A stretch of 30,000 nt of DNA from Aromatoleum diolicum (GTDB lineage: Bacteria; Pseudomonadota; Gammaproteobacteria; Burkholderiales; Rhodocyclaceae). The notes beneath the pieces are model-generated. The model did not search any database, was not told the origin of the DNA, and worked only from the letters and a program-made list of their open reading frames with translations. Below, in pieces: positions 9,490-28,850 of this stretch (positions within the stretch are counted from its first letter, which is position 1; the number at the start of each line of letters is the position of its first letter). The translations under genes were made by a program, and so were the position numbers. The stretch is from contig NZ_WTVQ01000010.1 of the NCBI RefSeq assembly GCF_012910955.1, positions 24,349-54,348 on the forward strand, in the 5' to 3' direction.

Positions 9490-9513
9490 CATCATCCTCT
9501 CGCGTCAGGTGCC

Positions 9514-10263: not shown

Positions 10264-10279
10264 TCGCAATATCTCCCGT

Positions 10280-11809: not shown

Positions 11810-11833
11810 TGCTGTTCCCTTCTACCGTCGCGA

Positions 11834-13000: not shown

Positions 13001-13050
13001 GTGGATGTCTCCAGGGGTTTCATTGAATGCCGGAACGGCGGGGGAGCGCG

Positions 13051-13881
13051 TCAGGCCGCGCGCTGTCGGCCCGGCGCGGACTCGGCCACGGTCGGATTGA
13101 TGCTTCTGAGGTATTCGGAAAGCGGGCTGACCGCCGACAACTCGTCGGCCGCCGCAAGAAGTTCGGGGGCCAGCGCGTCCATCGCCGCTTCGGTCAGGCG
13201 CACGGTCGGGCCGGCGATGCTGAGCACGCCGGTGACGCGCGCGGAATGGGGTTCGCGCACCGCGGCGGCCATCGACGACATGCCCGGCCCCCAGGTTTCG
13301 ATCGCGCGGCTGTAGCCCCGCTCGCGCGCATCGGCGACGCAGGCAAGCACTTCGGCGATCGTCTTCGGCACCTTCGGGCCGCGCTGGTCGAGCAGCGTGA
13401 AGCCCTGGCGGGCGACATGCTCGACCGCCTCGTTCTCCGGCAGGCTGGCAAGCCAGATCATGCCGCTCGACGAGCAAAACAGCGCCGCTTCGCCGCCCAT
13501 GTCGGGGTCGAAACGCAGCCCGCTGCGCGCGCCCTGCGCCTTCGCGACGAAAGGCAGGCGACCGTTATCGACGACCGCCAGGCGCACCAGTTCGCCGCTG
13601 ACGGCAGCCAGGCGGTTGAGCACCGGCTGCACCACTTCGACGATGCCGCTGCTGCCGAGCTGCTTGAAGCCCAGCGACATCAGTCGCGTCGTCAGCAGGT
13701 AGCGCGCCGAATCCTTGTCCTGCACCACGTAGTGCAGTTGCGCCAGTTCGGCCAGCAGGCGATGCGCGCCGCTCTTGGGCATGCCGAGGCGGTCGGCAAC
13801 GTCCTGCAGATTCAGGCCGCGCGGATGCTCAACCAGCAGCTCGAGAGCACCCATCGCACGAGCAAGGAGACTTCCAGCCAT
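13051..13881 (-). CDS. IclR family transcriptional regulator (copy 1)
   Basis: 276 aa. N-terminal wHTH (LNLQDVADRLGMPKSGAHRLLAELAQLHYV) and a C-terminal IclR effector domain. GAGGTG lies 5 nt upstream of the ATG. Confidence 0.9.
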   Translation of the reverse strand: MAGSLLARAMGALELLVEHPRGLNLQDVADRLGMPKSGAHRLLAELAQLHYVVQDKDSARYLLTTRLMSLGFKQLGSSGIVEVVQPVLNRLAAVSGELVRLAVVDNGRLPFVAKAQGARSGLRFDPDMGGEAALFCSSSGMIWLASLPENEAVEHVARQGFTLLDQRGPKVPKTIAEVLACVADARERGYSRAIETWGPGMSSMAAAVREPHSARVTGVLSIAGPTVRLTEAAMDALAPELLAAADELSAVSPLSEYLRSINPTVAESAPGRQRAA

Positions 13882-13965: not shown

Positions 13966-14010
13966 TTAAGTTGCGTTTTAGAAAGAAAACGCCGTTGTTA
14001 AGTTGCGTTT
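13966..14010 (+). repeat. 13-bp direct repeat TTAAGTTGCGTTT x2 (13966-13978 and 13998-14010, 32-bp register)
   Basis: Read directly. The second copy supplies the -35 element of the predicted promoter P1. Confidence 0.7.
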
Positions 14011-14031
14011 GTCGAAACACTGTTCTATATT
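14003..14031 (+). promoter_or_regulatory. predicted sigma70-type promoter P1 with embedded operator (drives the TIM-barrel gene 14191..15027)
   Basis: TTGCGT (14003-08), then a 17-nt spacer ttgtcGAAACACTGTTC, then TATATT (14026-31). Same layout as P2 and P3. Confidence 0.45.
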
Positions 14032-14190: not shown

Positions 14191-15027
14191 ATGGCGCACC
14201 AGTTCTCCCTCGCTCACCTCTCCGTGCTGACGACTTCGCCCGCGGAGATGGTGCAGATCGCCGCGAAAACCGGTTACGACTTCGTCAGCTTCCGCCTCAC
14301 CGCCGTCACGACGACCGAACACGTGTTCGCGCTGCAGAATGCTCGTGCGCTGATGAACGAGACCAAGGCCCTGCTCGCCGCCACCGGCGTGAAGGTGCTG
14401 GATATCGAACTGGCGCGCATGCCCGCGGAGATCGAGCCGGAAACCTACGTCCCGGTGCTCGAAGCCGCCGCCGAACTGGGCGCCCGCCACATCCTCGCGC
14501 AGCTGCCCGACGCCAACCGCGAACGCGCCACCGAGCGCTTCGCCCGCCTGTGCGACCTCGCCCTGCCCTACAAGCTGACCGTCGACCTCGAATACCCGAG
14601 CTGGACCGAGACACCGAACCTCGCCGCCGCCGCCGCCGTCGTGCGCGCGGTCAATCGCCCGAACGCCGGCATCCTGGTCGACACCCTGCATTTCGACCGC
14701 GCCCGCGACAGCCTCGAAGAACTGCGCAAGCTGCCCGCCGAGTGGTTCCATTTCGCCCAGGTGTGCGACGCCCCGGCGGAGATCCCGAGCACCGTCGAGG
14801 GCCTGATCCACACTGCCCGCAGCGAGCGCAACTTCCTCGGCGAAGGCGGTATCGACGTGCGCAGCATCCTCGACGCGATGCCGGCCGGCATCCCCTACTC
14901 GCTCGAAATCCCCACCGACACGCTGGCGCTGACCGTCAGTGCGGAAGAGCGCGCACGTCGCTCGATCCGCGCCGCCGAGGCCTACCTCGACGGTCTGCAC
15001 GGCCAGCGTCTGAAAAAATCGGCCTGA
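14191..15027 (+). CDS. sugar phosphate isomerase/epimerase family (xylose-isomerase-like TIM barrel) protein, copy 1
   Basis: ATG 14191 with GGAGGA 7 nt upstream. 278 aa. Family-typical pattern (VSFRL..., LVDTLHF, SLEIP). The track ORF start at 14062 adds an Arg/Pro-rich leader with no SD. Confidence 0.85.
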   Translation: MAHQFSLAHLSVLTTSPAEMVQIAAKTGYDFVSFRLTAVTTTEHVFALQNARALMNETKALLAATGVKVLDIELARMPAEIEPETYVPVLEAAAELGARHILAQLPDANRERATERFARLCDLALPYKLTVDLEYPSWTETPNLAAAAAVVRAVNRPNAGILVDTLHFDRARDSLEELRKLPAEWFHFAQVCDAPAEIPSTVEGLIHTARSERNFLGEGGIDVRSILDAMPAGIPYSLEIPTDTLALTVSAEERARRSIRAAEAYLDGLHGQRLKKSA

Positions 15028-16330: not shown

Positions 16331-16437
16331 ATTCGCAGTCCCCGGGTGCCGCGCCGACGCGACACCCGCTTCCGCCACGTCGGCTTGCCGTCCGTGGCCC
16401 GATGTTATGCTCGGCGGCCCGCCACTGGATTCGACGC

Positions 16438-17379
16438 ATGCTGGAAATTTTCACGATCACCGGTCCGGTCTTCATCGTCATCGCGATCGGCTTCGCCGCG
16501 GTCCGCAGTGGCCTCTTCGACAAGGCCGAGACCCGCATCCTCGGCAAGTTCGCGATCAACGTCGCCTTGCCGGCGATGCTGCTGAAGGCGCTGACCGAAC
16601 GCCCGTTCGCCGAGATCATGAACACCGGCTACCTCGCCGCGTACGCACTGGGCTCGCTCGCCGCATTCGCGATCGGCATCGCCGTCGCGCGCTACGCCCA
16701 GCACAAGAGCCTGCAGCTGAGCGCCATCCAGGGAATGGGCATGTCGCTGTCGAACAGCGGCTTCATCGGTTACCCGATCGTGCTGCAACTGCTCGGCCCA
16801 CCCGCCGCGATCGCGCTGGCGCTGTGCTTTCTCGTCGAGAACCTGCTGATCGTGCCGCTCGCGCTGTCGCTCGCCGAGGGCAGCAACGGCAACGGCGACA
16901 AGGTGCACAAGGTCGTGCTCGCCACCTTCGCCCGGCTCGGCAAGAACCCGCTGATCATCGCGATCGTCGCGGGCTTCACGTGCGCGCTGCTGGGCATCCG
17001 CCTGCCGACGCCGGCCGCACGCGCGATCGAAATGCTGTCGCTCGCCGCGGCGGGCATCGCGCTGTTCGTGATCGGCGGCACGCTGGTCGGTCTGAAGGTG
17101 GCGGGCATGCGCCGCGACATGGCGCAGATCGTCGCCGGCAAGCTGTTGCTGCATCCGCTCGCGGTATTCGTGGCGCTGTGGCTGCTGCCGCCGCTCGACC
17201 CGGCGCTGCGGATCGCAGCGATCACCTTCGCATGCATGCCAATGGCGAGCATCTATCCGATCATCGCGCAGAAATTCGGCCACGAACAGCTCGCCGCGGC
17301 AGCGCTGATGGCCGCGACCGTGACCGGATTCTTCTCGATCAGCGCGGTGATCTGGCTGCTGCGGCCGACGCTGGCCTGA
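16438..17379 (+). CDS. AEC (auxin efflux carrier / MdcF-like) family permease
   Basis: 313 aa from ATG 16438 (MLEIFTITGPVFIVIAIGFAAVRSGLF...), about 10 TM. The track ORF 15757..17379 carries a spurious Arg-rich extension. Confidence 0.9.
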   Translation: MLEIFTITGPVFIVIAIGFAAVRSGLFDKAETRILGKFAINVALPAMLLKALTERPFAEIMNTGYLAAYALGSLAAFAIGIAVARYAQHKSLQLSAIQGMGMSLSNSGFIGYPIVLQLLGPPAAIALALCFLVENLLIVPLALSLAEGSNGNGDKVHKVVLATFARLGKNPLIIAIVAGFTCALLGIRLPTPAARAIEMLSLAAAGIALFVIGGTLVGLKVAGMRRDMAQIVAGKLLLHPLAVFVALWLLPPLDPALRIAAITFACMPMASIYPIIAQKFGHEQLAAAALMAATVTGFFSISAVIWLLRPTLA

Positions 17380-17421: not shown

Positions 17422-18171
17422 TCACGCGAACGCATCCCACAGCAGCTTCACGCCCGACAGCCCCAGCATCGCGGTGGCGAACACGTAAAACACCCGCTCG
17501 GGAATCCGTTTCAGCGCCTTCAGACCGATCCACACCCCGACCGGTGCGATCGGCGCGAGCATCAGCGACACCTTGAAGCTCTCCCACGAGAACAGGCCGA
17601 GCGCGACATAGGGCACGATCTTCACCGCGTTCACCACGGTGAAGAAGATCACCGTCGTCGCGACGAAGGTCTCCTTCGCCAGGCCACGGTTCAGCAGATA
17701 CACCAGCAGCGGCGGCGAACCGGCATGCGCGATGGTGCTGGTGAAACCGGACACCGCCCCCCAGAACAGGCCCGCCAGCTTGCCCGGCGGTCCCGACAGT
17801 TTCAGACGGGCACGCAGGCCGAAGATCCGGTCGAGCGAGAACAGTACCGCGATCGCGCCGACGCAGCCCTTGACGGCCCTTTCCGGCATCCACCCGAAGA
17901 CCACCGCCCCGACCAGCATGCCCAGGCCCGCCGCCGGCAGCAGAATGCGGATCTCCGCGACCGACCACTTGCGCCAGTATGCGCGGATGCCGATCCAGTC
18001 GATGAACACCAGCAGCGGCAGCATCACCGCCGCCGCCTGGCCCGGCGTGATCCACATCGCCATGAAGGGCACGGCGAGCCCGCCGAAGGCGCCGCCGAGG
18101 CCGGATTTGGAGATGCCGGTCAGCAGCACGGCAATGCCGGCGACGATCCAGCCGGCGGTGTCGAATGTCAT
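17422..18171 (-). CDS. TauE/SafE (DUF81) family anion permease
   Basis: 249 aa. LTGISKSGLGGAFGGLAVPFM and GFTSTIAHAGSPPLLVYLL form the duplicated family motif. Confidence 0.9.
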   Translation of the reverse strand: MTFDTAGWIVAGIAVLLTGISKSGLGGAFGGLAVPFMAMWITPGQAAAVMLPLLVFIDWIGIRAYWRKWSVAEIRILLPAAGLGMLVGAVVFGWMPERAVKGCVGAIAVLFSLDRIFGLRARLKLSGPPGKLAGLFWGAVSGFTSTIAHAGSPPLLVYLLNRGLAKETFVATTVIFFTVVNAVKIVPYVALGLFSWESFKVSLMLAPIAPVGVWIGLKALKRIPERVFYVFATAMLGLSGVKLLWDAFA

Positions 18172-18283: not shown

Positions 18284-19066
18284 TTACCCGCCCTTCAACG
18301 AACGCTGCAGCACCTCGAGCACCTTCTTCATGTCCTCGATCGGCACCTGGCCCGGCGCGGAGGCCTTCTGGCCGACCGCGAAGCTCACCGACGAGCCGAA
18401 CACCCAGCCGAACAGGCGGGAGAGCGAGCCGTAGGCGCCCATCGACATGCTGATGATCGGCAGCGAAATCTTCTTCTGCCCTTCGAGCGTCGCCTGCAGC
18501 ACCGTCAGCACATCCTCGAGGCCCTGCGGCATCACCGCGACCTTGGCGATGTCGGCGCCGGCCTTTTCCATCGCGACGAACTTCGCGACGATCTCGTCGG
18601 CCGGCGGCGTCTTCTGGAAGTTGTGGAAGGACGCGATCAGCTTGGTGCCGGTCTCGCGCGCCAGTTCCACGGCCTGCTGGAAATGCTTCGGCTCGCTGCT
18701 CAGCTCGTAGTCGATGAAGTCGACCGCACCGGATCGCGCGACCGCCAGGTACAGCGCCAGCACCTGCTCTTCGGAGATGCCGATGGTCTCGCCGCCTTCA
18801 CGGATCGAACGACGCGTGAAGATGATCGGGATGCCGGCCGCGCTCTTGCGGATCTCCTGCGCCATGTCGACCACGCGGCCGGTCTCCGGGATGCCGGCGA
18901 AGAAGTCGACGCGCCATTCGAGCAGATCCGGCTGCTTGGCGACGATCGCGTCCAGTTCGCCCACGACTGCCGCTTCGTCACGGCCGACGAGCGGTGCGCA
19001 GATCAGCGGCTCCTTGCCGCCACCTACCGGCTTGCCTTTCACTTCCAGGGAACGGGTCATTGCCAT
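18284..19066 (-). CDS. aroD: type I 3-dehydroquinate dehydratase
   Basis: 260 aa. LLEWRVDFF. The His of SFHNFQKTP and the Schiff-base Lys of ADIAKVAVMP are conserved, as is the SR of GSLSRLFG. GGAG lies 8 nt upstream. Confidence 0.9.
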   Translation of the reverse strand: MAMTRSLEVKGKPVGGGKEPLICAPLVGRDEAAVVGELDAIVAKQPDLLEWRVDFFAGIPETGRVVDMAQEIRKSAAGIPIIFTRRSIREGGETIGISEEQVLALYLAVARSGAVDFIDYELSSEPKHFQQAVELARETGTKLIASFHNFQKTPPADEIVAKFVAMEKAGADIAKVAVMPQGLEDVLTVLQATLEGQKKISLPIISMSMGAYGSLSRLFGWVFGSSVSFAVGQKASAPGQVPIEDMKKVLEVLQRSLKGG

Positions 19067-19160
19067 GAGTTGACTCCTCGAATTCTCAAACTGATTCAGA
19101 TACCGCCGTGCGGCGGGGAGCCCGCAGGCTCCGCTCGGCCGACAGCATAACGTCGCCGGC

Positions 19161-20021
19161 CTAATCCTTGTAGCCGATCAGCTTGCGGATGCCTTCGGAC
19201 GTATAACCGTCGTAGCCGAACAGGCTCAGATACAAGGGCGCCATCTCGATGAACATCTCGCGGCCCATGTGGATCGTGCAGCCGCGCGCCTGTGCAGCGC
19301 GCAGCAGCGGGGTGAAGTCGGTCTTCATCACGACATCCGCGACCACCGTCGCCGACGCCAGACGTTCCACCGGCACCGGCAGCGGGTCGGTTTCATTCAG
19401 CCCGAGTGGCGTCGCGTTGACGACGAGATCGAAGCCCTGCGGGTCGTTGGTCGCCACGAAAGCCTCGCGGCATGCGGTATACGCGGGCAAACGTTCGGCG
19501 AGGCGTGCCGCGCTCACCGAATTCACATCATTGATACCGAGCGCCGCTGCCGATGCGTCGGCCAGCGCCACCGCAATCGCCGCGCCGACGCCACCGGAGC
19601 CGACAACCAGACAGCGCATACCCGCCGGATCGATGCCGGCGCGCTTGAGGCCGCGCACGAAGCCGACGCCGTCGAACAACTCGCCGAACAAGCTGCCGTC
19701 GGCGCGCTTGACGATCGCATTGCAGGCGCCGGCCGCGCGCACCGCCGGACTCGCCTCGTCGAGGAAGTCGACGCAGGTCGGCTTGTGCGGAATCGTCACC
19801 ATCGCGCCGCGCACATTGCGCACCGCGAACAGCGCCGGGCCGACCCTCGTGAGGTCGACCGGGGCAATTTCCATCGGCACGCAGGCCGCGTCGATGCCGC
19901 TTGCCGCGAACACCTTGTTGAACAGCATCGGCGCCTTCACCTGGCCGACCGGATAACCGATGACCGGGTAAAGGAGCGTCGAACCGGTGATCGACAGCGG
20001 GTCCATTTCTGTAATAGTCAT
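19161..20021 (-). CDS. shikimate/quinate dehydrogenase family (AroE/YdiB-like) oxidoreductase, divergent substrate pocket
   Basis: 286 aa. The catalytic Lys (VTIPHK) and Asp (LFDGVGF) and the Rossmann motif VVGSGGVGAAIA are present. The canonical SxS and NTD substrate-binding residues are replaced. An alternative start exists at M6 (20006). Confidence 0.85.
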   Translation of the reverse strand: MTITEMDPLSITGSTLLYPVIGYPVGQVKAPMLFNKVFAASGIDAACVPMEIAPVDLTRVGPALFAVRNVRGAMVTIPHKPTCVDFLDEASPAVRAAGACNAIVKRADGSLFGELFDGVGFVRGLKRAGIDPAGMRCLVVGSGGVGAAIAVALADASAAALGINDVNSVSAARLAERLPAYTACREAFVATNDPQGFDLVVNATPLGLNETDPLPVPVERLASATVVADVVMKTDFTPLLRAAQARGCTIHMGREMFIEMAPLYLSLFGYDGYTSEGIRKLIGYKD

Positions 20022-20106
20022 CCGAACGTTCCTTCTCGCGACGCCTTGATGTCTGAAAACGCTGTCTGTTGGGGTTGGGGGCCGGTTCGTCCGCGACTGC
20101 TTCGCG

Positions 20107-21867
20107 TCAGTCGGTGCTGACGTGCGACACGCTCGCGTTCGGCGAGTAGATGTCGAGGATGTTCCAGTGGCCGGTCGTCGGCACCGGGTTGTTCTTCATC
20201 GCCACGTCGATCACGAAGGGCTTCTTCGAGGCCACCGCGCGTTCCAGCACCTCCTTGAACTCCTCGGCCGACTCGATCTTCACGCCTTCCGCCCCGTAGG
20301 CGCGCGCCACCGCGGCGAAGTCCGCCTGGTACGGCTCGCCGTCCTTGCGGAACAGCGTGCCGGTGGTGGTGCCGTAGTGCGCCTTCTGCAGGCCGGCGAT
20401 GGTGCCGAACGCGAAGTTGTTCATGATCACCCATACCACCGGGATGTTCTCTTCCACCGCCGTCGCCAGCACCGCCGGGTTCTGGCCGAAGCCGCCGTCA
20501 CCGACCAGCGACACCACCACGCGCTCGGGGAAGGCCAGCTTGGCGCCGAGCGCAGCCGGCGCGCCGAAGCCCATCGTGCAGTAGCCGCCCGGGGTCAGGA
20601 TGCTGCCCGGGGTGTAGATCGGGAACTGCTGGCCGACGCCGTTCTTGTTCCAGCCCACGTCGGTGGTGATGAACGCGTCGCGCGGCAGCACCTCGCGGAC
20701 CACCGACAGGATGCGCTCGGGCATCATCGGGAAGCAGTCGTCCTGGACGAACTTCTGGTTGCCGGCGACGAACTGCTCACGGAACGCGGCGATCTCGGCG
20801 CGCAGCGCGTCGTTCTTGCGGCCTTTCGGCAGCATCTCGCGGGCGACGCGGTTCAGCACCACGAGCGCCTGCTTGAGGTCGGTGACGACGCCGATTTCCG
20901 CCGGGTAGTTGCGGCCGATTTCCGCCGGATCGATATCGATGTGGATCAGCTTGGTCGGCGGGAAGCTGAACGTGAATTCGTTTTCCCACGAACTGCAGTC
21001 GGCTTCGGCGAAGCGCGTACCGAGGCCGATGATCCAGTCCGCGTTGCGGCACTTGTCATTGACCAGCTGGGTGCCCCAGAAGCCGGTCATGCCGAGTACC
21101 AGCTCATGGTCGTCCGGCAGCACGCCCTTGCCCATCAGCGAATGCGCGACCGGCAGGGACAGATGATCGGCGAAGGCCTTCAGTTCTTCGGCCGCGTCGG
21201 CGAGGATCACGCCGCCGCCGGCATAGATCACCGGATTCTTGGCGTCGACCAGGGCCTGCACGATCTTCTTCGCGGTCACGTCGTCGATCGAGGGCTTCTG
21301 CAGCGCCTTGGTGTGATGGCGCAGGCGGGTGAACAGCGAGACATCGATCTCTTTCGAGAACATGTCCATCGGCACGTTCACCAGCACCGGCCCGGGACGG
21401 CCGCTTTCGGCAAGCTGGAAAGCCTTCTCAATGATTTCCGGGAACAGTTCCGGCGTATCCACGCGCCACGCGCGCTTGACAAAGGGACGGTAGATTTCCC
21501 ACTGCGACGCGTCCGCATGCAGGTTGATTTCCTGGTGCGGGTGCTTGCCGTAGTAGTAGCTCGGGATGTCGCCGGCGATGACGACCATCGGGATCGAATC
21601 CAGGGCGGCATTGGCGACGCCGGTCGACGCATTGGTCAGGCCCGGTCCGAGGTGGGAGAGCACCACTGCGGTCTTCTTCGTCGCGCGCGCATAGCCGTCG
21701 GCGGCGTGGGCGGCGATCTGCTCGTGACGGGTATTCACGAAGCGGATCTTGCTGTTTTCCAGCGCCGTCAGCACCGCGATGTTGGTGTGGCCGCACAGGC
21801 CGAAAATGTGCTCGACACCGCGATCTTCGAGGTAGCGCACGAGCTGGTGGGAAATCAGTTGCTTCAT
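20107..21867 (-). CDS. thiamine-diphosphate-dependent enzyme of the acetolactate-synthase/IlvB superfamily, specificity unknown
   Basis: 586 aa. PYR-domain catalytic Glu (TRHEQIAAHAADGYAR). ThDP/Mg motif LVGDGGFGQNPAVLATAVEENIPVVWVIMNN. GGAGG lies 9 nt upstream. Confidence 0.9.
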   Translation of the reverse strand: MKQLISHQLVRYLEDRGVEHIFGLCGHTNIAVLTALENSKIRFVNTRHEQIAAHAADGYARATKKTAVVLSHLGPGLTNASTGVANAALDSIPMVVIAGDIPSYYYGKHPHQEINLHADASQWEIYRPFVKRAWRVDTPELFPEIIEKAFQLAESGRPGPVLVNVPMDMFSKEIDVSLFTRLRHHTKALQKPSIDDVTAKKIVQALVDAKNPVIYAGGGVILADAAEELKAFADHLSLPVAHSLMGKGVLPDDHELVLGMTGFWGTQLVNDKCRNADWIIGLGTRFAEADCSSWENEFTFSFPPTKLIHIDIDPAEIGRNYPAEIGVVTDLKQALVVLNRVAREMLPKGRKNDALRAEIAAFREQFVAGNQKFVQDDCFPMMPERILSVVREVLPRDAFITTDVGWNKNGVGQQFPIYTPGSILTPGGYCTMGFGAPAALGAKLAFPERVVVSLVGDGGFGQNPAVLATAVEENIPVVWVIMNNFAFGTIAGLQKAHYGTTTGTLFRKDGEPYQADFAAVARAYGAEGVKIESAEEFKEVLERAVASKKPFVIDVAMKNNPVPTTGHWNILDIYSPNASVSHVSTD

Positions 21868-21954
21868 TTGTTGTCGCCTCCAAATTTGACTATCGCTGCC
21901 GTGTCGCGGTCAGCATGAAAAAGCCTGTCCTGCCGGATGCCGTGAGTCGTGCGC

Positions 21955-22803
21955 CTATTTCACTTCGGGAACAGCCCGGCGTGCCGGTCCCGCATAGGTG
22001 TAAGGAATGCTCTTGGGCATCGGTCCCTTGATGCGCCCGCCCTGCTGCGATTGCTCCCACGCATGCGCGAGGATGCCGACCGAGCGCGACAGGATGAACA
22101 GGCCGCGCCCGAGTTCGGGCGCGAAGCCCAGTTCGGCGTAGATCACCGCGGTCGCACCGTCGATGTTCATCGGGATGCGCTTGCCCTTGCGCCGCTCGAG
22201 GATCGCCTCGACCTGCTGGCCGATGCGCGAATACAGCCCGCCGACGACACCCTTGGCACGCGCCGCCTCGACCAGTTCGAGCAGCTTGCCCGAACGCGGA
22301 TCGATCGGATGGAAGCGGTGGCCGAAACCCGGAATCACCTTGCCGTTCTCAGCAATATAGGCGTCGAGGGCAGCTTCCACCGCGTCTTCGAGCGTGGCGC
22401 CCTGCTCCATGCGGCGCGCCGCATCCGCATACAGTTCCATGCACTGCTGGCCCGCGCCGCCGTGGATGCCGGCCAGCACGTTGATCGCCGAGGCCATCGC
22501 GTTGTTCAGTTCGACGCCGCAGGTCACCGCCATGCGCGAGATCGCGATTGACGGCGCCTGCGGACCGTGGTCCACCGCCGCGACCAGCGCCGCTTCCAGC
22601 AGGCTCGACTGTTCGGCCGTCGGCAGGTCGCCGCGCACCATCAGCCAGATCATCTGCGGAAAGCTGATCGCGCCGATCAGCTCCTCGATCGGGTAACCGC
22701 GCATCGCGATCTTGCCCGGGTGGATGTCGATGATCTCGGTCTTCCACCACGCTTCGGCTTCGCGGACGATTTCGTCTGACGTCTTTGCGTCTGAATTCTT
22801 CAT
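21955..22803 (-). CDS. citrate-synthase-fold short protein (citryl-CoA lyase-like)
   Basis: About 282 aa from ATG 22803. The track start at 22809 is a GTG overlapping the upstream stop. The citrate-synthase catalytic triad context is kept: LAGIHGGAG, PGFGHRFHP, PMNIDGAT. Confidence 0.85.
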   Translation of the reverse strand: MKNSDAKTSDEIVREAEAWWKTEIIDIHPGKIAMRGYPIEELIGAISFPQMIWLMVRGDLPTAEQSSLLEAALVAAVDHGPQAPSIAISRMAVTCGVELNNAMASAINVLAGIHGGAGQQCMELYADAARRMEQGATLEDAVEAALDAYIAENGKVIPGFGHRFHPIDPRSGKLLELVEAARAKGVVGGLYSRIGQQVEAILERRKGKRIPMNIDGATAVIYAELGFAPELGRGLFILSRSVGILAHAWEQSQQGGRIKGPMPKSIPYTYAGPARRAVPEVK

Positions 22804-22805
22804 GC

Positions 22806-24008
22806 TCACACCACCTTCTGTTCGTGAAGTTCGGCCACTTGCGCCGCGTCGTAGCCGAGTTCGGCGAGCAGCGCGTCGGTATGTTCGCCGAGTACCGGCG
22901 GCGGCGTCGCGATGTCGGGATTGCCACCTGCCATCTTGAAGCCGGCGCGCACCAGACTGAGGTCACGCCCCACGCCCGGCACATCCTCGAACTTCGCCAG
23001 CAGGTCGCGTTCGAGGATCTGCGGATGCTGCAGCACCTGCGGCACGGTCAGCACGCGGCCGGCCGGCACGCCGAGCTTCGCGAGGATCGTTTCCCATTCC
23101 TCCGCCGACTTCGTCGCCAGCCCCGCGTCGACTTCGACCTTCAGCGCCTTGCGGTTGCGCTTGCGCGCTTCGCGCTCGGCGAAACGCTCATCGGTCGCCA
23201 GCTCCGGCCGGCCGATCGCGGCCACCAGTGCCTCGAACTGCTCCTGCTTGTTCGCGGCGATGTTCAGCAGCCCGTTGCCGGTGCGGAAAGTGCCGGACGG
23301 CGCCGCGGTGAAGTTCTCGTTACCCATCGGCACCGGTTCCTTGCCGGCGATCAGGTAGTTCGACACCACCCAGCCCATCGTCACGATCGTCGAATCGAGC
23401 ATCGACACGTCGATGAACTCGCCTTCGCCGGTCTTCGCCTGACGCACCAGCGCGCTCGCCACCGCGAACGCCGCGGTGATGCCGCCGATCGTGTCAGCGA
23501 CCGGGTAGCCCACGCGCAGCGGCGCCGACTCGTTGTCACCGGTGATGCTCATCACGCCGGACATGCCCTGCACGATCTGGTCATAGGCCGGTGCGTGGCG
23601 CATCGGGCCCTGCTGACCGAAACCCGAGATCGCGCAATACACCAGCTGCGGATTGATCTCCTTCAACACCTCGTAACCCAGGCCGAGCCGGTCCATCACG
23701 CCCGGGCGGAAGTTCTCCACCAGCACGTCGGCGCTCTTCACGAGGCGGAACAGCACTTCCTTGCCGGCAGCGGACTTGAGGTTGAGCGTCAGCGACTTCT
23801 TGCCGCCGTTCTGCGCGAGGAAGGACGCCCCCATCTTCCTCTTGTTCAGCTCGGGATCCGCGCCAAGCTGGCGCGCCAGATCGCCCGATTCCGGGACTTC
23901 GACCTTGATCACCTCAGCCCCCAGCAGCGCCAGCTGATAAGCGCAAAATGGGCCGGCGAGCACGTTGGTCAGGTCCAGGACGCGGATTCCGGAAAGCGCT
24001 GCGGTCAT
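22806..24008 (-). CDS. family III (CaiB/BaiF/Frc-type) CoA-transferase
   Basis: 400 aa. LSGIRVLDLTNVLAGPFCAYQLALLGAEVIKVEVPESGD and the catalytic-Asp region GYPVADTIGG. GGGG lies upstream of the ATG. Confidence 0.9.
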   Translation of the reverse strand: MTAALSGIRVLDLTNVLAGPFCAYQLALLGAEVIKVEVPESGDLARQLGADPELNKRKMGASFLAQNGGKKSLTLNLKSAAGKEVLFRLVKSADVLVENFRPGVMDRLGLGYEVLKEINPQLVYCAISGFGQQGPMRHAPAYDQIVQGMSGVMSITGDNESAPLRVGYPVADTIGGITAAFAVASALVRQAKTGEGEFIDVSMLDSTIVTMGWVVSNYLIAGKEPVPMGNENFTAAPSGTFRTGNGLLNIAANKQEQFEALVAAIGRPELATDERFAEREARKRNRKALKVEVDAGLATKSAEEWETILAKLGVPAGRVLTVPQVLQHPQILERDLLAKFEDVPGVGRDLSLVRAGFKMAGGNPDIATPPPVLGEHTDALLAELGYDAAQVAELHEQKVV

Positions 24009-24061
24009 GTGCTACCCCTTACGTGACAGTGGATCGACATCGATCTCGTCTAGTTGGGTAA

Positions 24062-24090
24062 ATAATAGAACGCAATTCTTTCTAGCGCAA
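24062..24090 (-). promoter_or_regulatory. predicted sigma70-type promoter P2 with embedded operator (drives the caiB-like to aroD operon)
   Basis: Minus strand reads TTGCGC (24090-85), then a 17-nt spacer tagaaAGAATTGCGTTC, then TATTAT (24067-62). The operator AGAAC-GCA-ATTCT occupies 24067-24079. Predicted 5' UTR is about 47 nt. Confidence 0.5.
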
Positions 24091-24274
24091 CTGTTTTTAA
24101 AACTGCGTTTTATTTTTAGACGACGCGGTGGATCCGAAGCTCACCAAGGAATGTTGACCATCGGCGCCGTAGGAGCGGCTTCAGCCGCGAACACGCCCGG
24201 CACGAGAGCTTCCCAGCGAAAGCCGCGCCCACGGGCGATTCGCCCATCGGCGAGGTATCGCGTCAGGCTCTCGG

Positions 24275-24314
24275 AAAAAAGGGGAAAGACGGGGAGCGGG
24301 GCACCTGCGCCCCG
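24275..24314 (-). terminator. terminator-like element after the TIM-barrel-2 gene
   Basis: Minus strand reads CGGGGC-gcaggt-GCCCCG, then CTCCCCGTCTTTCCCC, then TTTTTT. The T6 run is 16 nt from the first stem, and alternative GGGG/CCCC pairings are possible. It starts 5 nt after the stop codon. Confidence 0.35.
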
Positions 24315-24318
24315 GTGC

Positions 24319-25167
24319 TCAGGTGTTGCCGGCGGCCACCCTGGCGGCGAGCCACTGCACCGACGCCTGCGCGCGGGCCATCACGAGCGGCAACTGGCTG
24401 TGCTGGTTGTCGTCGCTGAACACATCGAGCGTGTAGTCGCCGCGGTAACCATTGCTTTCGAGCTGCGTCAGCAACTCGGTGATCAGCTGGCCGTGCGCGC
24501 CCTCGCCGGGAAATACCCGTTCGTGGCGCGAGACTTCGACGAACTCCTCGATCTCGGAAATGAAATCGAACTTGTAGTCGGAAAACTGCACGAGGAAGAT
24601 CCGGTCCGCCGGAATGTCCTTCAAGGTATCCGCTGCGGTCTGGCGCATCAGGATCTGGAAGGAATCGATCACCAGCCCGACGTTGCGACGGTTCGCCAGC
24701 TCGACGACGCGCCACGCGTCGGTGTACTCGCTGACCCAGCGTCCCCACGCCAGCGCCTCGTAGCCGATGCGGATGCCGAAGGGAGTCGCCAGCGTGCCGA
24801 GCACCGAAAGATTGCGTGCCAGCAGCACCGGATCGGCAACCGCCGTCGGCGAAGTCGAGGACGACACGATCAGCAGCCGGCAGCCGACCGAGGCCGCCAG
24901 TTCGAGAATCGACTTCGCGGCGTCGAGGCGGTATTCGAACTCCCGCTCCGTATTGCTGCCCATCTCGCGCAACACCTGGAAGGCGCTGACCTTCAGGCTG
25001 CTCTCGCGCACCCGCCGCGCCGCCACCGTCGCCCCTTCGGGATGCGCCAGCAGATCCTTCGCGCTCAGCTCGACCGCCCCGAACCCCGCGGCCAGCGCGG
25101 CGTCGATCTTCTCCTGCAGCGTTCCCGGCAGGGTCGCGCTATTGATCCCGATTCTACGAATATCCAT
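24319..25167 (-). CDS. QsuB/QuiC/Qa-4-type dehydratase domain protein (3-dehydroshikimate-dehydratase-like, xylose-isomerase-like TIM barrel), copy 2
   Basis: 282 aa. INSATLPGTLQEKIDAALAAGFGAVEL, IRIGYEALAWGRWV, DSFQIL, IPADRIFLVQFSD, SRHERVFPGEG and TLDVFSDD mirror the N-terminal DSD domain of QsuB-type enzymes as I recall them. Confidence 0.85.
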   Translation of the reverse strand: MDIRRIGINSATLPGTLQEKIDAALAAGFGAVELSAKDLLAHPEGATVAARRVRESSLKVSAFQVLREMGSNTEREFEYRLDAAKSILELAASVGCRLLIVSSSTSPTAVADPVLLARNLSVLGTLATPFGIRIGYEALAWGRWVSEYTDAWRVVELANRRNVGLVIDSFQILMRQTAADTLKDIPADRIFLVQFSDYKFDFISEIEEFVEVSRHERVFPGEGAHGQLITELLTQLESNGYRGDYTLDVFSDDNQHSQLPLVMARAQASVQWLAARVAAGNT

Positions 25168-25215
25168 ATCGCTGTCTGCGCTACCGCTGGGGAGTGGAGA
25201 GGAGGGTCTCGCGCT

Positions 25216-26106
25216 TCAGGCTGCGGCCGGACGCTGCACGACCTCGAAATAGAACGGCTCGACGACCGGCGCGGTAACCAGGCGCGTGACGCCCGGCCGG
25301 TCCGCATCGGCCTCGGGGTCGCGAGCCAGCGGGATCCCGTTCGCGCGGAAGGCCGCGGCGACGTCCGCCAGCGCGTCAGTCTCGATGCCGATGTCGGCAA
25401 TCCCCTCGGCATTCACGGGCTCGCTTGCCGCGGCACCCGGCGTCGCATCGGCCTCGGGCCGGATGACGATGCGGATCTTGCCGCAGGGGCTCTCCATCCA
25501 GATGCAGCCGCCCGCCGTGGTCTGTGTCGTGCGGAAACCGAAAACCTGCTGGTGGAACTCGATCCACTCCTGCTCGCGGCCGGCGCAGACGGTCAGCGTG
25601 ATGTGTTCGACACGCGTGAGCCCGAGCGGCTTCACCGGCGGCGACATCTGCGGCAAGGGCAGGAAATCGACGTCGTAGATCGTGTGGTCGCCATAGCGAT
25701 CGACAAAGTAGATGTGCGTCCCGCCGACGCTGATGATGGCCGGAATGTTCAGCTCCATCGCGCCCGCGTGCGGTGGAACGTCCCAGGCGCCGCTCGCCAA
25801 CGCCCGCTTGTACGCCGACGCGACGTTCTTCACGCGCACCGCGATCGCGCAGATGCCCGGCCCGTAGCTGCGGTTGAACGTCTGCGCGAAGCTCTCTTCG
25901 TCCGCATTGATCAGGAAATTGATGTCGCCCTGCCGGAACAGCACCACGTTTTTCGATCTGTGTTTCGCAACGGCCGAGAATCCCATCTGCTCGAAATGTG
26001 CTCCCAGCGCAACGGCATCGGGGGCGGCAAATTCGACGAACTCCAGGCCATCCAGCCCCAGAACATTTTCTGGTGCTTCAGAGGTCGAAAAAAACGGGTC
26101 TTGCAT
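25216..26106 (-). CDS. 4-hydroxyphenylpyruvate-dioxygenase-like (VOC superfamily) protein, truncated type
   Basis: 296 aa. The N-terminal half is strongly HPPD-like (GLDGLEFVEFAAPD...GFSAVAKHRSKNVVLFRQGDINFLINAD...MELNIPAI). It ends at YFEVVQRPAAA and so lacks the HPPD C-terminal helix. AGGAG lies 8 nt upstream. Confidence 0.85.
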   Translation of the reverse strand: MQDPFFSTSEAPENVLGLDGLEFVEFAAPDAVALGAHFEQMGFSAVAKHRSKNVVLFRQGDINFLINADEESFAQTFNRSYGPGICAIAVRVKNVASAYKRALASGAWDVPPHAGAMELNIPAIISVGGTHIYFVDRYGDHTIYDVDFLPLPQMSPPVKPLGLTRVEHITLTVCAGREQEWIEFHQQVFGFRTTQTTAGGCIWMESPCGKIRIVIRPEADATPGAAASEPVNAEGIADIGIETDALADVAAAFRANGIPLARDPEADADRPGVTRLVTAPVVEPFYFEVVQRPAAA

Positions 26107-26302
26107 CCTTTGGCTCCTAACTGCCGCAAGGCATCAGACATATGAGGTTTCACAACGCGGCGATGCCGCCACCGCCCTTTTATCATATGCCCGGCAGCAG
26201 ACCCAACACCTTTCTTCGGCCTGCTGTGGCGACAATGAGAAAATGCCGCCGCACACCGCAGCGAAAGCCTTGGCGTGGGGCGGCATGGTCAAGCCGGTCC
26301 GC

Positions 26303-26326
26303 AAAAGCGCCGCTCGCGCGAGCGCT
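26303..26326 (-). terminator. weak terminator/attenuator-like hairpin after the aldehyde dehydrogenase gene
   Basis: Minus strand reads AGCGCTCGCGCGAGCGGCGCTTTTG. It contains the 14-nt palindrome CGCTCGCGCGAGCG and a T4 run. Confidence 0.3.
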
Positions 26327-26346
26327 CCCGGGTCGCGACCCTGGCT

Positions 26347-27837
26347 TCAGCGACGGATGAACGGGTTCGGCACGTCGAGGTCGGTCGAGATCCACACGCA
26401 CTTGGTTTCGAGGTACTCGCGGATTGCGTCGGCCCCCGACTCGCGGCCGATGCCCGAGCGCTTGTAGCCGCCGAACGGAGCGGTGTAGCTCGTCGCGCGG
26501 TAGTTGTTCACCCACACGGTGCCGGCCTTGAGCTTGTCGGTGACGTACATCGCGCGGTGCAGGCTCTTGGTCCACACGGCGCCGGCGAGGCCGTACAGCA
26601 CGTCGTTGCCGATGCGCACGGCGTCTTCCTCGTCCTTGAACGGGATCACGCACAAGACCGGGCCGAACACCTCTTCCTGGGCGATGCGCATCTTGTTGTT
26701 CACGCCGGTGAAGATCGTCGGCTCGACGAACTGGCCGGCGCCGAGGTCGGGGCGCGAGCGGCCACCCAGCACACACTTCGCGCCTTCGCCCTTGGCGATC
26801 TCGATGTAGCTCATGATCTTCTCGAACTGCGGACGCGTCGCGATCGGGCCGACCTGGGTGTCGAGCTGCGAGGGGTCGCCGATCTTGGCGGTGCTGACGA
26901 ATTCGACCAGACGGCGTACGACTTCATCGTGAATGCTTTCCTGCACCAGCAGGCGCGAACCGGCCTGGCAGGTCTGGCCCGAAGCCGCGAACACGCCGGA
27001 CACGATGCCCTTCACGGCCTGATCCAGATCCGCGTCGTCGAACACGATGTTGGGCGACTTGCCGCCCAGTTCCAGCGTCACGGTCTTCAGGCCGCGCGCG
27101 GCCGCTTCGTAGATCTTCTGGCCGGCAATCTCGCCCCCGGTGAAGCCGATGTGCGCGGTGTCGGGATGCTCGACCAGCGGCGCGCCGACTTCATGACCGA
27201 AACCGGTGACGACGTTCACCACCCCCGGCGGGAAGCCGGCTTCGGCGAACAGCTTGGCGAGCTCGATCGCCGAAGCGGAGGTGAATTCGGACGGCTTGAT
27301 CACGATCGTGCAGCCCGCGGCCAGCGCCGGCGCAAGCTTCCAGCTGGTCAGCGTGAGCGGCGAATTCCACGGCGTGATGATCACGACGACGCCCTTGGCC
27401 TCGTACTTCGTGTAGCAGAAGACGCCCTTCTTGTCGGTCGGGATGACGTGGCTTTCGATCTTGTCGGCCAGGCCGGCGTAGTAATGGAAGTACTCGCCCA
27501 GGTACTTGACCTGCGCGACGACCTCCGCAGCCAGCTTGCCGTTGTCGCGGCGCTCGATCTCGGCCAGGTGCTCGGCGTTGGCGACGATCAGGTCGGCGAC
27601 CTTGCGCATCAGTTTGCCGCGCTGGCTTGCGGTCAGCGACGGCCATTCGCCTTCCTCGAAGGCCCGGTGCGCGGCCGCAACGGCCGCATCGACGTCGGCC
27701 TTGTTGCCACGGGCGATCTCGGCCCAAGCTTCGCCGGTATAGGGGTTTTCGGTCGGAAAGTACTCGCCCGAAGCCGGGGGGACGATCTTGCCGTCGATGT
27801 AGTTGCCGTACTTGGGGAGTGCCTTTGCGTTTTCCAT
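26347..27837 (-). CDS. NAD(P)-dependent aldehyde dehydrogenase
   Basis: 496 aa. Catalytic Glu (LELGGKSP) and Cys (GQTCQAGSR) motifs, plus FTGGEIAG and EEVFGPV. GGAGA lies 5 nt upstream. Confidence 0.9.
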   Translation of the reverse strand: MENAKALPKYGNYIDGKIVPPASGEYFPTENPYTGEAWAEIARGNKADVDAAVAAAHRAFEEGEWPSLTASQRGKLMRKVADLIVANAEHLAEIERRDNGKLAAEVVAQVKYLGEYFHYYAGLADKIESHVIPTDKKGVFCYTKYEAKGVVVIITPWNSPLTLTSWKLAPALAAGCTIVIKPSEFTSASAIELAKLFAEAGFPPGVVNVVTGFGHEVGAPLVEHPDTAHIGFTGGEIAGQKIYEAAARGLKTVTLELGGKSPNIVFDDADLDQAVKGIVSGVFAASGQTCQAGSRLLVQESIHDEVVRRLVEFVSTAKIGDPSQLDTQVGPIATRPQFEKIMSYIEIAKGEGAKCVLGGRSRPDLGAGQFVEPTIFTGVNNKMRIAQEEVFGPVLCVIPFKDEEDAVRIGNDVLYGLAGAVWTKSLHRAMYVTDKLKAGTVWVNNYRATSYTAPFGGYKRSGIGRESGADAIREYLETKCVWISTDLDVPNPFIRR

Positions 27838-27919
27838 GTATGTCTCCAGTCATGAACACGAGTCAGTGCTCTGCCTGTCGCAATCACATTCCACCAAACG
27901 GTCAGAAGCCCGGGTTGTG

Positions 27920-27948
27920 TTGCGCTGATCAGAACTGTGTTCTAGTAT
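27920..27948 (+). promoter_or_regulatory. predicted sigma70-type promoter P3 with embedded perfect operator
   Basis: TTGCGC (27920-25), then a 17-nt spacer tgatcAGAACTGTGTTC, then TAGTAT (27943-48). The operator AGAAC-TGT-GTTCT occupies 27931-27943. It points toward iclR-2. Confidence 0.45.
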
Positions 27949-28127: not shown

Positions 28128-28850
28128 ATGAGCAGCGAAGGCGTCGCATCCGTAGAACGCGCCCTGACCATCCTCGACGTGTTCACCGACCGCGATAGAA
28201 GTCTGACCCTCACCGAGATTTCCAAGCGTGCCGGCTTCTACAAGAGCACGACGCTGCGCCTGGCCGAATCGCTGGAGAAGTTCGGCTACCTGCGCCGGCT
28301 CGAGGACGGCGCCTATCGTCTCGGCCCCAAGCCCTTGTTCCTCGGTGCGCTGTACCAGAAGCATTTCAGCACCGCCGACTTCGTGCCGCAGTTGATGCGC
28401 CGGATGTCGGAAGAGCTGCGTGAAGGCATCTCCTTCTTTGTACGCGACGAAGACCGCCGCGTCTGCCTGCACCGCGTCGAATCACCGCGCGCGATCCGCG
28501 ACGCGATCCACGAGGGTGACGCGTTTCCGCTCAACAACGGCGCTTCGGGCCACGTGCTGCTCGCGTTCAGCGGCCTGTCCGGCGGCAAATACGACCAGAT
28601 TCGCGAACGTTACTACGCGATGTCGGTCGGCGAGCGGGATCCCGAAACCACCGCGGTCGCGGCGCCGGTGTTCGCCGTGCAGCAGCGGCTGGTCGGGGCG
28701 CTGTCCGTGTCCGGGCCGAAATACCGTCTCGACGAGAAGGCGCTCGAGGACATCGTGCCGACGCTGCAGAAATACGCCGCGGAACTCACTCACCTGTTCG
28801 GCGGCGCCTGGCCCGACCTCGGCCAGGCATCCAAGCGTTCGCACGGCTGA
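28128..28850 (+). CDS. IclR family transcriptional regulator (copy 2)
   Basis: 240 aa. wHTH LTLTEISKRAGFYKSTTLRLAESLEKFGYL and an IclR effector domain (GALSVSGP). Confidence 0.9.
   Translation: MSSEGVASVERALTILDVFTDRDRSLTLTEISKRAGFYKSTTLRLAESLEKFGYLRRLEDGAYRLGPKPLFLGALYQKHFSTADFVPQLMRRMSEELREGISFFVRDEDRRVCLHRVESPRAIRDAIHEGDAFPLNNGASGHVLLAFSGLSGGKYDQIRERYYAMSVGERDPETTAVAAPVFAVQQRLVGALSVSGPKYRLDEKALEDIVPTLQKYAAELTHLFGGAWPDLGQASKRSHG

Follow-up and report, generated by a model that had tools for sequence, protein, structure and literature searches.

A 30,000-nt stretch of Aromatoleum diolicum DNA (contig NZ_WTVQ01000010.1; the whole stretch is referred to below as the window) carries, on the minus strand between positions 18284 and 27837, a gene array that combines enzymes of quinate and shikimate metabolism with a thiamine diphosphate (ThDP) enzyme of the acetolactate synthase (ALS) superfamily, a citryl-CoA-lyase-like protein, a family III CoA-transferase and an aldehyde dehydrogenase (ALDH). 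Comparison of sequences and gene neighbourhoods suggests that this cluster most likely opens the quinate/shikimate ring without oxygen and without an aromatic intermediate. The features of the window, which is G+C-rich (62-70%), are collected in Table 1. The seven genes of the array that had been named in an earlier sequence-only reading were all found on the minus strand with the boundaries given there, and genes of IclR-family regulators flank the region. One open reading frame (ORF) of the array, which codes for a protein similar to 4-hydroxyphenylpyruvate dioxygenase (HPPD), had been missed. The same reading had claimed that no pcaGH, ligAB, praA-type or benzoyl-CoA-pathway gene is present. 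Indeed, no member of the pcaGH, ligAB, praA or benzoyl-CoA-reductase families was found among the ORFs scanned in the window, but the claim needs qualifying in view of the overlooked HPPD-like ORF.

Table 1. Genes and regulatory elements of the window discussed in the text (bit scores are profile matches; cut-offs are those of the respective families).
Feature	Position	Strand	Basis
IclR-family regulator IclR1	13051..13881	-	Pfam HTH_IclR + IclR_C; NCBIfam PcaR/PcaU/PobR-type match below cut-off
26-nt element, copy 1, upstream of TIM2	14002..14027	+	Pattern match and alignment of three regions
TIM2, xylose-isomerase-like TIM barrel	14191..15027	+	Pfam PF01261
TauE/SafE (TSUP) family permease, downstream of aroD	17422..18171	-	Pfam PF01925, 109 bits
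AroD, type I 3-dehydroquinate dehydratase	18284..19066	-	PF01487, 236 bits; TIGR01093, 208.8 vs cut-off 139.3
Shikimate/quinate dehydrogenase (SDH)-family enzyme	19161..20021	-	PF08501 Shikimate_dh_N; best NCBIfam match 173 bits, below cut-off
ALS-superfamily ThDP enzyme	20107..21867	-	Three TPP domains; all listed NCBIfam matches below family cut-offs
Citrate-synthase-fold, citryl-CoA-lyase-like protein	21955..22809	-	NF004864, 456.3 bits vs cut-off 261
Family III CoA-transferase	22806..24008	-	PF02515, 414 bits; frame overlaps lyase gene by 4 bp
26-nt element, copy 2, upstream of CoA-transferase operon	24066..24091	-	Pattern match
TIM-barrel half of split QuiC1/QsuB-type homologue	24319..25167	-	PF01261; QuiC model 5-249, 157 bits
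HPPD-like VOC protein, 296 aa	25216..26106	-	Glyoxalase_5, 181 bits, E = 1.8e-53; QuiC model 287-528
NAD(P)-dependent ALDH, non-acylating type	26347..27837	-	PF00171, 594 bits; no NCBIfam equivalog cut-off reached
26-nt element, copy 3, divergent ALDH/IclR2 intergenic region	27919..27944	+	Pattern match and alignment
IclR-family regulator IclR2, divergent from ALDH gene	28128..28850	+	Pfam HTH_IclR + IclR_C

Genomes were scanned, with one genome per species, for loci similar to that of the window. The scan retrieved 64 loci, 61 of which contain an orthologue of the ThDP enzyme at 68-95% identity. All ORFs of the loci were clustered, and recurrent clusters were annotated, mapped by tblastn and counted within 10 kb of the ThDP gene. 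The 61 loci span the Rhodocyclales, Burkholderiales, Casimicrobiaceae, Alphaproteobacteria, Bacillaceae (Neobacillus, Robertmurraya, Anaerobacillus, Marinococcus, Terribacillus), Pelosinus, Peptococcaceae and Desulfosporosinus, and include strict anaerobes. The window protein is 94-95% identical to those of Azoarcus sp. Aa7, Aromatoleum toluolicum, A. tolulyticum and Azoarcus sp. KH32C, in which the gene lies on a 737-kb plasmid; these values agree with an origin of the window in a denitrifying betaproteobacterium of the Aromatoleum/Azoarcus type. Identity to the Bacillaceae orthologues is 71-76%. The most constant neighbour of the ThDP gene is the TIM barrel gene TIM2, which in the window lies outside the array, found in 46 of the 61 loci and in 33 of the 41 that have at least 8 kb on both sides. 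An IclR2 orthologue adjoins the cluster in 12 loci, the SDH gene of Castellaniella defragrans is divergent from TIM2 beside a CoA-transferase - lyase - ThDP array, and an 83% identical ALDH orthologue heads the operon in Thauera. Conservation of the gene set in other genomes, which the sequence-only reading had proposed as a check, was observed: in dozens of species, ThDP orthologues are surrounded by one and the same set of functions, far beyond chance.

Three of the recurrent families have no member in the window. These are an acylating aldehyde dehydrogenase (SauS/EutE-like), an HMG-CoA-lyase-like protein of the DRE-TIM type and a Zn-dependent alcohol dehydrogenase (Zn-ADH). TRAP transporters and LacI or IclR regulators also recur near the ThDP gene. 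The catalytic families replace one another step by step. An HMG-CoA-lyase-like gene is present in 21 of the 61 loci and a citryl-CoA-lyase-like gene in 27, so that 48 have either and none has both. The acylating ALDH occurs in 41 loci and the pair of ALDH and CoA-transferase in 15 (either in 52, both in four), while the entry dehydrogenase is of the SDH family in 29 and a Zn-ADH in 19 (either in 48); in Bacillaceae, the Zn-ADH gene directly precedes the ThDP gene. Each of the four possible pairings of an activation mode with a lyase type is represented, and the lineages concerned are unrelated: acylating ALDH with the HMG-CoA-lyase-like protein in Bacillaceae, Peptococcaceae, Rubrivivax and Alphaproteobacteria; acylating ALDH with the citryl-CoA-lyase-like protein in Casimicrobiaceae and other Burkholderiales; ALDH and CoA-transferase with the citryl-CoA-lyase-like protein in the window, Thauera, Caldimonas, Castellaniella and Terribacillus; and ALDH and CoA-transferase with the HMG-CoA-lyase-like protein in Marinococcus and Alkalihalobacillus. 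The CoA-transferases of Firmicutes are only 31-33% identical to that of the window and were therefore recruited independently. The two activation modes are not strictly exclusive, with the acylating ALDH accompanied by the ALDH/CoA-transferase pair in L007, L010 and L060 and by a CoA-transferase in L067.

We read this substitution pattern as the signature of one pathway, the steps of which are filled by analogous enzymes. Since all four combinations are met in unrelated lineages, it follows that the product of the ThDP enzyme should be an aldehyde, which would be made into a 3-hydroxy-3-substituted acyl-CoA, either in one step or by way of the free acid. Both lyase folds are known from enzymes in which acetyl-CoA is condensed with a 2-oxo acid or a ketone, namely citrate synthase on the one hand and homocitrate, isopropylmalate and citramalate synthases and HMG-CoA lyase on the other. 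The chemistry of both folds is the reason to expect a 3-hydroxy-3-substituted acyl-CoA, most simply a homologue of citryl-CoA. In the window enzyme, residues 9-282 cover positions 4-277 of the 278 in the NF004864 profile; we know of no experimental support for the name "citryl-CoA lyase", or for the substrate it implies, in this clade.

The presence of a family III CoA-transferase near a ThDP enzyme, as in frc-oxc, could also point to CoA activation of quinate itself, followed by cleavage of the type carried out by 2-hydroxyacyl-CoA lyase (HACL) and Oxc to formyl-CoA and a trihydroxycyclohexanone. This alternative, kept open in the sequence-only reading, now appears very improbable. Identity to E. 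coli Oxc is 25%, the lowest among the references apart from one IolD, and most of the 41 loci with an acylating aldehyde dehydrogenase are devoid of a CoA-transferase. The lyase would moreover be left without a role. On the grounds of the low identity and of the mostly CoA-transferase-free loci, an HACL/Oxc identity of the ThDP enzyme was rejected.

The ThDP enzyme was compared with cyclohexane-1,2-dione hydrolase (CDH; a sequence identical to PDB 2pgn), two annotated IolD proteins and E. coli IlvI, glyoxylate carboligase (Gcl), PoxB and Oxc. Identities were 35% to IlvI, 33% to Gcl, 29% to CDH, 28% to PoxB, 24-27% to IolD and 25% to Oxc. In a neighbour-joining tree, the clade formed by the 68-95% identical orthologues stands alone, beside IlvI and Gcl and apart from IolD and CDH. 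The best NCBIfam and PDB matches are likewise acetolactate synthases and Gcl, with the exception of the top PDB match, BbmA; IolD is absent from the 25 best NCBIfam matches, each of which scores at least 308 bits. An exact-sequence look-up of the window protein returned no record.

An identity as acetohydroxyacid synthase (AHAS) was nevertheless ruled out. The score with TIGR00118 is 442.4 versus a cut-off of 538.35, and the other ALS models are also below their cut-offs. No gene for an AHAS regulatory small subunit lies beside the ThDP gene, the neighbours of which are the lyase and SDH genes (compare ilvI-ilvH in E. coli), and the operon context is catabolic. In addition, three residues that are typical of AHAS and serve its second substrate, the Lys of PKD, the Arg of FDDR and the Trp of QW, have given way to Met, Ala and Leu (VPMD, FAEAD and GLQ), and these replacements are conserved across the orthologues. 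Two further residues are of interest. The catalytic glutamate (RHEQ) is kept. His27 (FGLCG-H27-TNI), with a conservation of at least 95% among 56 orthologues, occupies the same alignment column as His28 of CDH (FIG-H28-TS) and the corresponding His of IolD (FG-H-GN), a position held by Gly, Ala, Asp and Ile in IlvI, Gcl, PoxB and Oxc, respectively. His28 of CDH lines the active site; an H28A variant has been deposited as PDB 4d5g. The shared histidine supports a ring-cleaving chemistry of the window-type enzyme. On the tree and profile scores, we place the enzyme in a distinct clade, outside the IolD and CDH families and outside AHAS. The placement against IolD, CDH, Oxc and ALS/Gcl that had been suggested as a check thus gave a divided answer: the enzyme does not group with IolD or CDH but adjoins AHAS and Gcl, while it forms a clade of its own and shares a histidine with both diketone hydrolases.

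Given that its nearest relatives are AHAS and Gcl and that RHEQ is kept, the ThDP enzyme might instead be a 2-oxo-acid decarboxylase or carboligase that acts on an open-chain product, such as 3,7-dideoxy-hepto-2,6-diulosonate from retro-aldol opening of dehydroquinate, with subsequent oxidation of the aldehyde and cleavage of the acyl-CoA. Catabolic pathways commonly pair a decarboxylase with a subsequent aldehyde dehydrogenase. We consider this scheme quite improbable. The conserved set contains no candidate for a ring-opening aldolase, the acceptor-binding residues of AHAS are replaced and the histidine of the diketone hydrolases is present. The products, furthermore, would not be central metabolites and further, non-conserved enzymes would be needed, which also applies to direct acyloin cleavage of dehydroquinate. 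A role of the ThDP enzyme in sulfonate degradation (Xsc/SauS/TauE) was considered as well, prompted by the resemblance of the acylating ALDH to SauS (471 versus a cut-off of 600) and by the TauE permease. It was discarded: the score with Xsc is 309 versus a cut-off of 620, and the TauE gene is found only in the Aromatoleum group and in L058 (42% identity).

TIM2, the gene of which has a GGAGGA sequence 8 nt before its ATG, belongs to a family of at least 2748 proteins at E <= 1e-10, all with generic annotation (sugar phosphate isomerase/epimerase). The structures closest to its AlphaFold model (pLDDT 92.8) are IolI (1i60), Listeria Lmo2234 (2g0w, TM 0.82) and the N-terminal domain of the QuiC1 dehydratase. 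Judging by locus numbering, the Lmo2234 gene should adjoin lmo2233, which codes for a regulator and belongs to the qui2 locus of Listeria, a locus under regulation by shikimate. Because these are its closest structures, TIM2 would fall in the subgroup of TIM barrels that act on cyclohexanone polyols. Comparison of TIM2 with AsbF, made by eye only and not used as evidence, showed a common D-x-x-H, with no counterpart of AsbF His144.

The second TIM barrel, that of the array itself, is of a different kind. It matches QuiC1 of P. putida (PDB 5hmq) with 137 bits, and the HPPD-like protein encoded next to it scores 124 bits against QuiC1 and 167 bits against HPPD (1cjx). Together, the two adjacent ORFs cover QuiC model positions 5-249 and 287-528, i.e. 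both domains of the QuiC1/QsuB architecture, although their scores (157 + 128 bits) lie far below the 1200-bit cut-off of the NF042435 QuiC equivalog. In L067, the TIM barrel and HPPD-like parts are fused in one 627-aa protein. A two-domain architecture of dehydroshikimate dehydratase is described in PMC7442255. The barrel and the HPPD-like protein of the window look like a split homologue of this conventional, aromatising enzyme, and probably constitute a separate aromatising side branch or have another role. The HPPD-like protein is about 60 residues shorter than HPPD. Of the metal triad of P. fluorescens HPPD, it retains the first His and the Glu but carries Asp in place of the second His. 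The sequence-only reading had assigned dehydration of dehydroquinate to the QuiC-like barrel. In our analysis, this step is more probably catalyzed by TIM2, the constant partner of the ThDP enzyme.

The three parts of the region that contain these genes appear to be co-regulated. The intergenic regions that precede the TIM2 and CoA-transferase genes and the one shared by the divergent ALDH and iclR2 genes can be aligned and have in common a GTTGCGYT-N12-GTTCTA element followed by a -10-like hexamer. The window contains exactly three matches to this pattern versus 0.00 expected, a test that is partly circular because the pattern was derived from these sites. The 26-nt element recurs before TIM2 in Azoarcus sp. 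Aa7 (L001), before the CoA-transferase gene in KH32C and at all three homologous places in Thauera phenylacetica (L049, with 6016-6041 as the counterpart of copy 3), where 7 matches were found versus 1.35 expected. Since the element recurs at homologous positions, TIM2 likely belongs to the same regulon as the cluster, and the IclR-type regulators would control at least three promoter regions through it. None of the three elements was recognized as a promoter in a generic sigma-70 scan, owing to a weak first hexamer, and we therefore refer to them only as promoter/operator-like. Terminator-like hairpins were found on the minus strand at 26264-26246, between the ALDH and HPPD-like genes, and at 18210-18193, between aroD and the TauE gene. 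The array had been described as two operons. The genes are indeed co-directional, but with the first of these hairpins and a 310-bp gap with a conserved promoter-like element before the CoA-transferase gene, the number of transcription units may be three.

What ties the ThDP module to quinate and shikimate is its company. SDH-family genes, often as two or three paralogues, are present in 29 loci and dehydroquinase genes in 26 (type I in 23, type II in 6). The dehydroquinase gene is often inside the ThDP operon: it directly precedes the ThDP gene in L009 and L027, follows TIM2 in L033 and lies upstream of an acylating ALDH - lyase - ThDP - TIM2 array in L025, L034, L037 and L058. The SDH-family enzyme of the window contains GSGGVG...IND, which would be an NAD-type signature. 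Finally, the tertiary hydroxy-acid carbon implied by both lyase types fits what C1 of quinate provides.

All three enzymes of the textbook route are, however, encoded in the array. This opens the possibility of two unrelated functions side by side, with the SDH-family enzyme, AroD and the split QuiC-like dehydratase leading to protocatechuate and the CoA-transferase, lyase, ThDP enzyme and ALDH degrading another organic acid. Pairs of QuiC-like and dehydroquinase genes recur in proteobacterial loci (the QuiC-like protein being fused in L067), and Caldimonas-type loci hold the four-gene module alone. We nevertheless find such a juxtaposition unlikely. In the window, the SDH gene and aroD come after the ThDP gene in the same direction, across short gaps (85-94 bp), and that strand shows no terminator-like site there; dehydroquinase genes are inside ThDP operons even where a QuiC-like gene is absent, as in L027 (Peptococcaceae) and L033 (Marinococcus); a type II dehydroquinase replaces type I beside the module in L067 and L031; and the shared regulatory element ties the units together. 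A position of the ThDP module downstream of protocatechuate was ruled out by Firmicutes loci without any QuiC-like gene.

A different substrate is the other possibility to be weighed. The same enzyme logic could serve another carboxylated cyclitol or a branched sugar acid, and the hydroaromatic genes would feed into it, or be merely co-located with it, in proteobacteria. The operons of Bacillaceae, with Zn-ADH and TRAP transporter genes, would suit such a substrate, since among their 17 full loci only 3 contain a dehydroquinase gene and 1 an SDH gene; so would the minimal ALDH - Zn-ADH - ThDP set of Pseudogracilibacillus and the annotation of the TIM2 family solely as sugar phosphate isomerase/epimerase. 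Yet the 71-76% identity between the ThDP enzymes of Bacillaceae and the window suggests one substrate, the dehydroquinase gene is embedded in the operon in the Firmicutes loci L027 and L033 as well as in many proteobacteria, and either type of lyase suggests a tertiary hydroxy-carboxy acyl-CoA as substrate, a compound that would arise naturally from quinate. We regard another substrate as not very likely.

In our opinion, it is somewhat more likely than not that quinate and shikimate are degraded through the enzymes of this locus by a route that needs no oxygen and avoids protocatechuate. The SDH-family dehydrogenase would oxidize quinate to 3-dehydroquinate, and shikimate to dehydroshikimate, which the reversible AroD would hydrate to dehydroquinate. 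TIM2 would then remove the C5 hydroxyl by alpha-deprotonation and beta-elimination, as in dehydroshikimate dehydratase and IolE; because C1 keeps its hydroxyl, the product should be non-aromatic 1-hydroxy-3,4-dioxocyclohexane-1-carboxylate. Attack of the ThDP enzyme on the C3 carbonyl and hydrolytic cleavage of the C3-C4 bond, as with IolD and CDH, would give homocitrate semialdehyde in the form of 2-(2-oxoethyl)-2-hydroxyglutarate, in which the short arm carries the aldehyde group in beta position to the tertiary carbinol. Ring cleavage of the opposite polarity would lead to a gamma-hydroxy acyl-CoA, which such a lyase is unable to split. In the window, the ALDH would form homocitrate and the family III CoA-transferase homocitryl-CoA, whereas in most other genomes a single acylating aldehyde dehydrogenase would accomplish both. 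In the last step, the citryl-CoA-lyase-like enzyme, or elsewhere the HMG-CoA-lyase-like one, would release acetyl-CoA and 2-oxoglutarate. The compact operon of Bacillaceae (TRAP transporter, LacI, HMG-CoA-lyase-like protein, TIM2, Zn-ADH, ThDP enzyme and acylating ALDH) would encode exactly five enzymes for the five steps from quinate to acetyl-CoA and 2-oxoglutarate. Several elements of the scheme proposed in the sequence-only reading stood: an aldehyde product, an acyl-CoA, a Claisen-type lyase, embedding of the module among hydroaromatic genes and occurrence in strict anaerobes. Its assignment of the dehydratase did not, and by overall similarity the ThDP enzyme adjoins AHAS and Gcl and not IolD or CDH, which the reading had cited as precedents.

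A number of observations weigh against this pathway. Overall, the ThDP enzyme is more similar to the carboligases IlvI and Gcl than to CDH and IolD, and the comparison set for His27 is small, with only four other family members. The top structural match of TIM2 is IolI, with IolE only at rank 50, so that TIM2 could be an isomerase or epimerase. No TIM2 gene lies within reach in 15 of the 61 loci; those of Caldimonas and Pelomonas hold only IclR and ALDH - CoA-transferase - lyase - ThDP, and those of Pseudogracilibacillus (L039, L040, L047) only ALDH - Zn-ADH - ThDP, with no TIM2 or lyase gene within 10 kb. The hydroaromatic link is indirect in most Bacillaceae loci, which are without a dehydroquinase or SDH gene, and proteobacterial loci often also carry a QuiC-like dehydratase, that is, the conventional protocatechuate route is encoded alongside. 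In the closest relatives of the window (L001-L003, L068), the ALDH gene is missing at this place and the HPPD-like gene directly follows the IclR gene. By chemical reasoning, the diketone formally equals protocatechuate plus water and could aromatise spontaneously. The support, then, consists of gene content, synteny, interchangeable enzymes and sequence signatures, from which activities and intermediates are deduced. Taking these points together, we give an even chance to the proposal in its full extent, namely a widespread, undescribed and O2-independent five-step pathway from quinate (and shikimate) to acetyl-CoA and 2-oxoglutarate via a non-aromatic diketone and homocitrate/homocitryl-CoA, a pathway that would involve a homocitryl-CoA lyase, a new dehydroquinate 4,5-dehydratase and a new clade of ring-cleaving ThDP hydrolases and of which Proteobacteria and Firmicutes would possess no fewer than four versions with interchangeable enzymes.

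Mechanistically, the proposed route resembles the opening half of inositol catabolism, followed by an ending of the citrate lyase type. In myo-inositol catabolism, IolG, IolE and IolD oxidize a carbinol, dehydrate the product to a 1,2-diketone by means of a TIM barrel and open the ring with a ThDP enzyme of the ALS superfamily, and the N-terminal G-H motif is common to IolD and the window enzyme. The enzymes themselves are not orthologous, however. The two ThDP enzymes belong to different clades, the structure modelled for TIM2 resembles IolI and QuiC1 more closely than IolE, and the inositol dehydrogenase is a Gfo/Idh/MocA protein instead of an SDH-family or Zn-ADH enzyme. Downstream, IolB, IolC and IolJ stand in place of CoA activation and a lyase; no iolB, iolC, iolE or iolG gene was found in the window or in the conserved neighbourhood of the ThDP orthologues. 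CDH comes from Azoarcus sp. 22Lin, a member of the same bacterial group, and is a ThDP enzyme that cleaves a cyclic 1,2-diketone hydrolytically to a semialdehyde acid. Besides the low identity, it differs from the window enzyme by ATELGG at the catalytic glutamate, by a deletion where the latter has a conserved HPHQE and by its gene context.

The likeness to the textbook route (QuiA or QsuD, QuiB/QsuC, QuiC/QsuB) extends to the SDH-family dehydrogenase, the dehydroquinase and the two-domain dehydratase, which is split in the window. The differences are that no ring-cleavage dioxygenase is found among the scanned window ORFs, that the ThDP enzyme, TIM2, ALDH, CoA-transferase and lyase are additional and that strict anaerobes are included. 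For the last step, each locus would use one of two folds, that of citryl-CoA lyase/citrate synthase or that of the DRE-TIM enzymes (HMG-CoA lyase, homocitrate synthase), both of which perform reversible Claisen-type reactions; the proposed substrate of the window enzyme, homocitryl-CoA, sets it apart from citryl-CoA lyase.

Quinate and shikimate, free or as esters of the chlorogenic acid type, are among the most abundant plant-derived alicyclic acids. In the open-access literature searched, their degradation runs only via protocatechuate, followed by oxygenases or anaerobic aromatic machinery. No non-aromatising route and no mention of homocitryl-CoA were found there, an absence that is not proof, nor anything useful on BbmA/CsmA. 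The pathway thus appears undescribed, and it appears widespread. Fermenting bacteria that degrade quinate and shikimate were reportedly described in the early 1990s; we know of no enzymology for them. The annotation of the KH32C copy in RefSeq is generic only. If true, the proposal would explain the use of quinate and shikimate by denitrifiers, fermenters and sulfate reducers and would give functions to thousands of proteins now named "thiamine pyrophosphate-binding protein", "sugar phosphate isomerase/epimerase" or "citryl-CoA lyase". It would also add a third family of ring-opening ThDP hydrolases and enzymes that make or cleave homocitrate.

Other genes of the window deserve brief mention. 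The TauE/SafE permease, a possible substrate or anion transporter, is annotated at the equivalent place on the KH32C plasmid. Between TIM2 and the TauE gene, the window contains an AEC permease gene and two genes of the chromate transporter family (approximately 15200-17379, plus strand). The same island is present on the KH32C plasmid (L068, 18677-25395), where it is interrupted by IS3 transposase and RHS-repeat genes. In E. coli K-12 (L075, 2488000-2496000), the AEC-family gene yfdV is located between oxc and yfdE, and the likeness to the AEC permease near the ThDP/CoA-transferase cluster of the window may be a coincidence. The Pseudogracilibacillus loci contain LacI and an unannotated membrane protein beside ALDH - Zn-ADH - ThDP, an arrangement that recalls the diol-to-diacid logic of the cyclohexane-1,2-diol pathway.

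The iclR1 gene is divergent from TIM2 and heads an operon (8527-13021, minus strand) that codes for electron-transfer flavoprotein (ETF) subunits alpha and beta, a 509-aa family I CoA-transferase and an acyl-CoA dehydrogenase. The closest structure to the latter is Bcd (5ol2), with the caffeyl-CoA reductase CarC (6fah) in third place, and the set resembles CarABCDE. The dehydrogenase gene is also found beside the ThDP cluster in L001, L005/L049 and L025, and the CoA-transferase gene in L001 and L025. Chlorogenic acid is caffeoyl-quinate; that the island handles both halves of this compound is pure speculation. In L022 (13543-17475), the acylating ALDH gene is directly followed by genes for a secreted protein with an SLH domain and a metallo-beta-lactamase fold and for an esterase of the polyhydroxybutyrate depolymerase/feruloyl-esterase type. 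The two proteins, seen only in closely related genomes (cluster c44 in 8 Bacillaceae loci), could serve to release quinate from chlorogenic acids.

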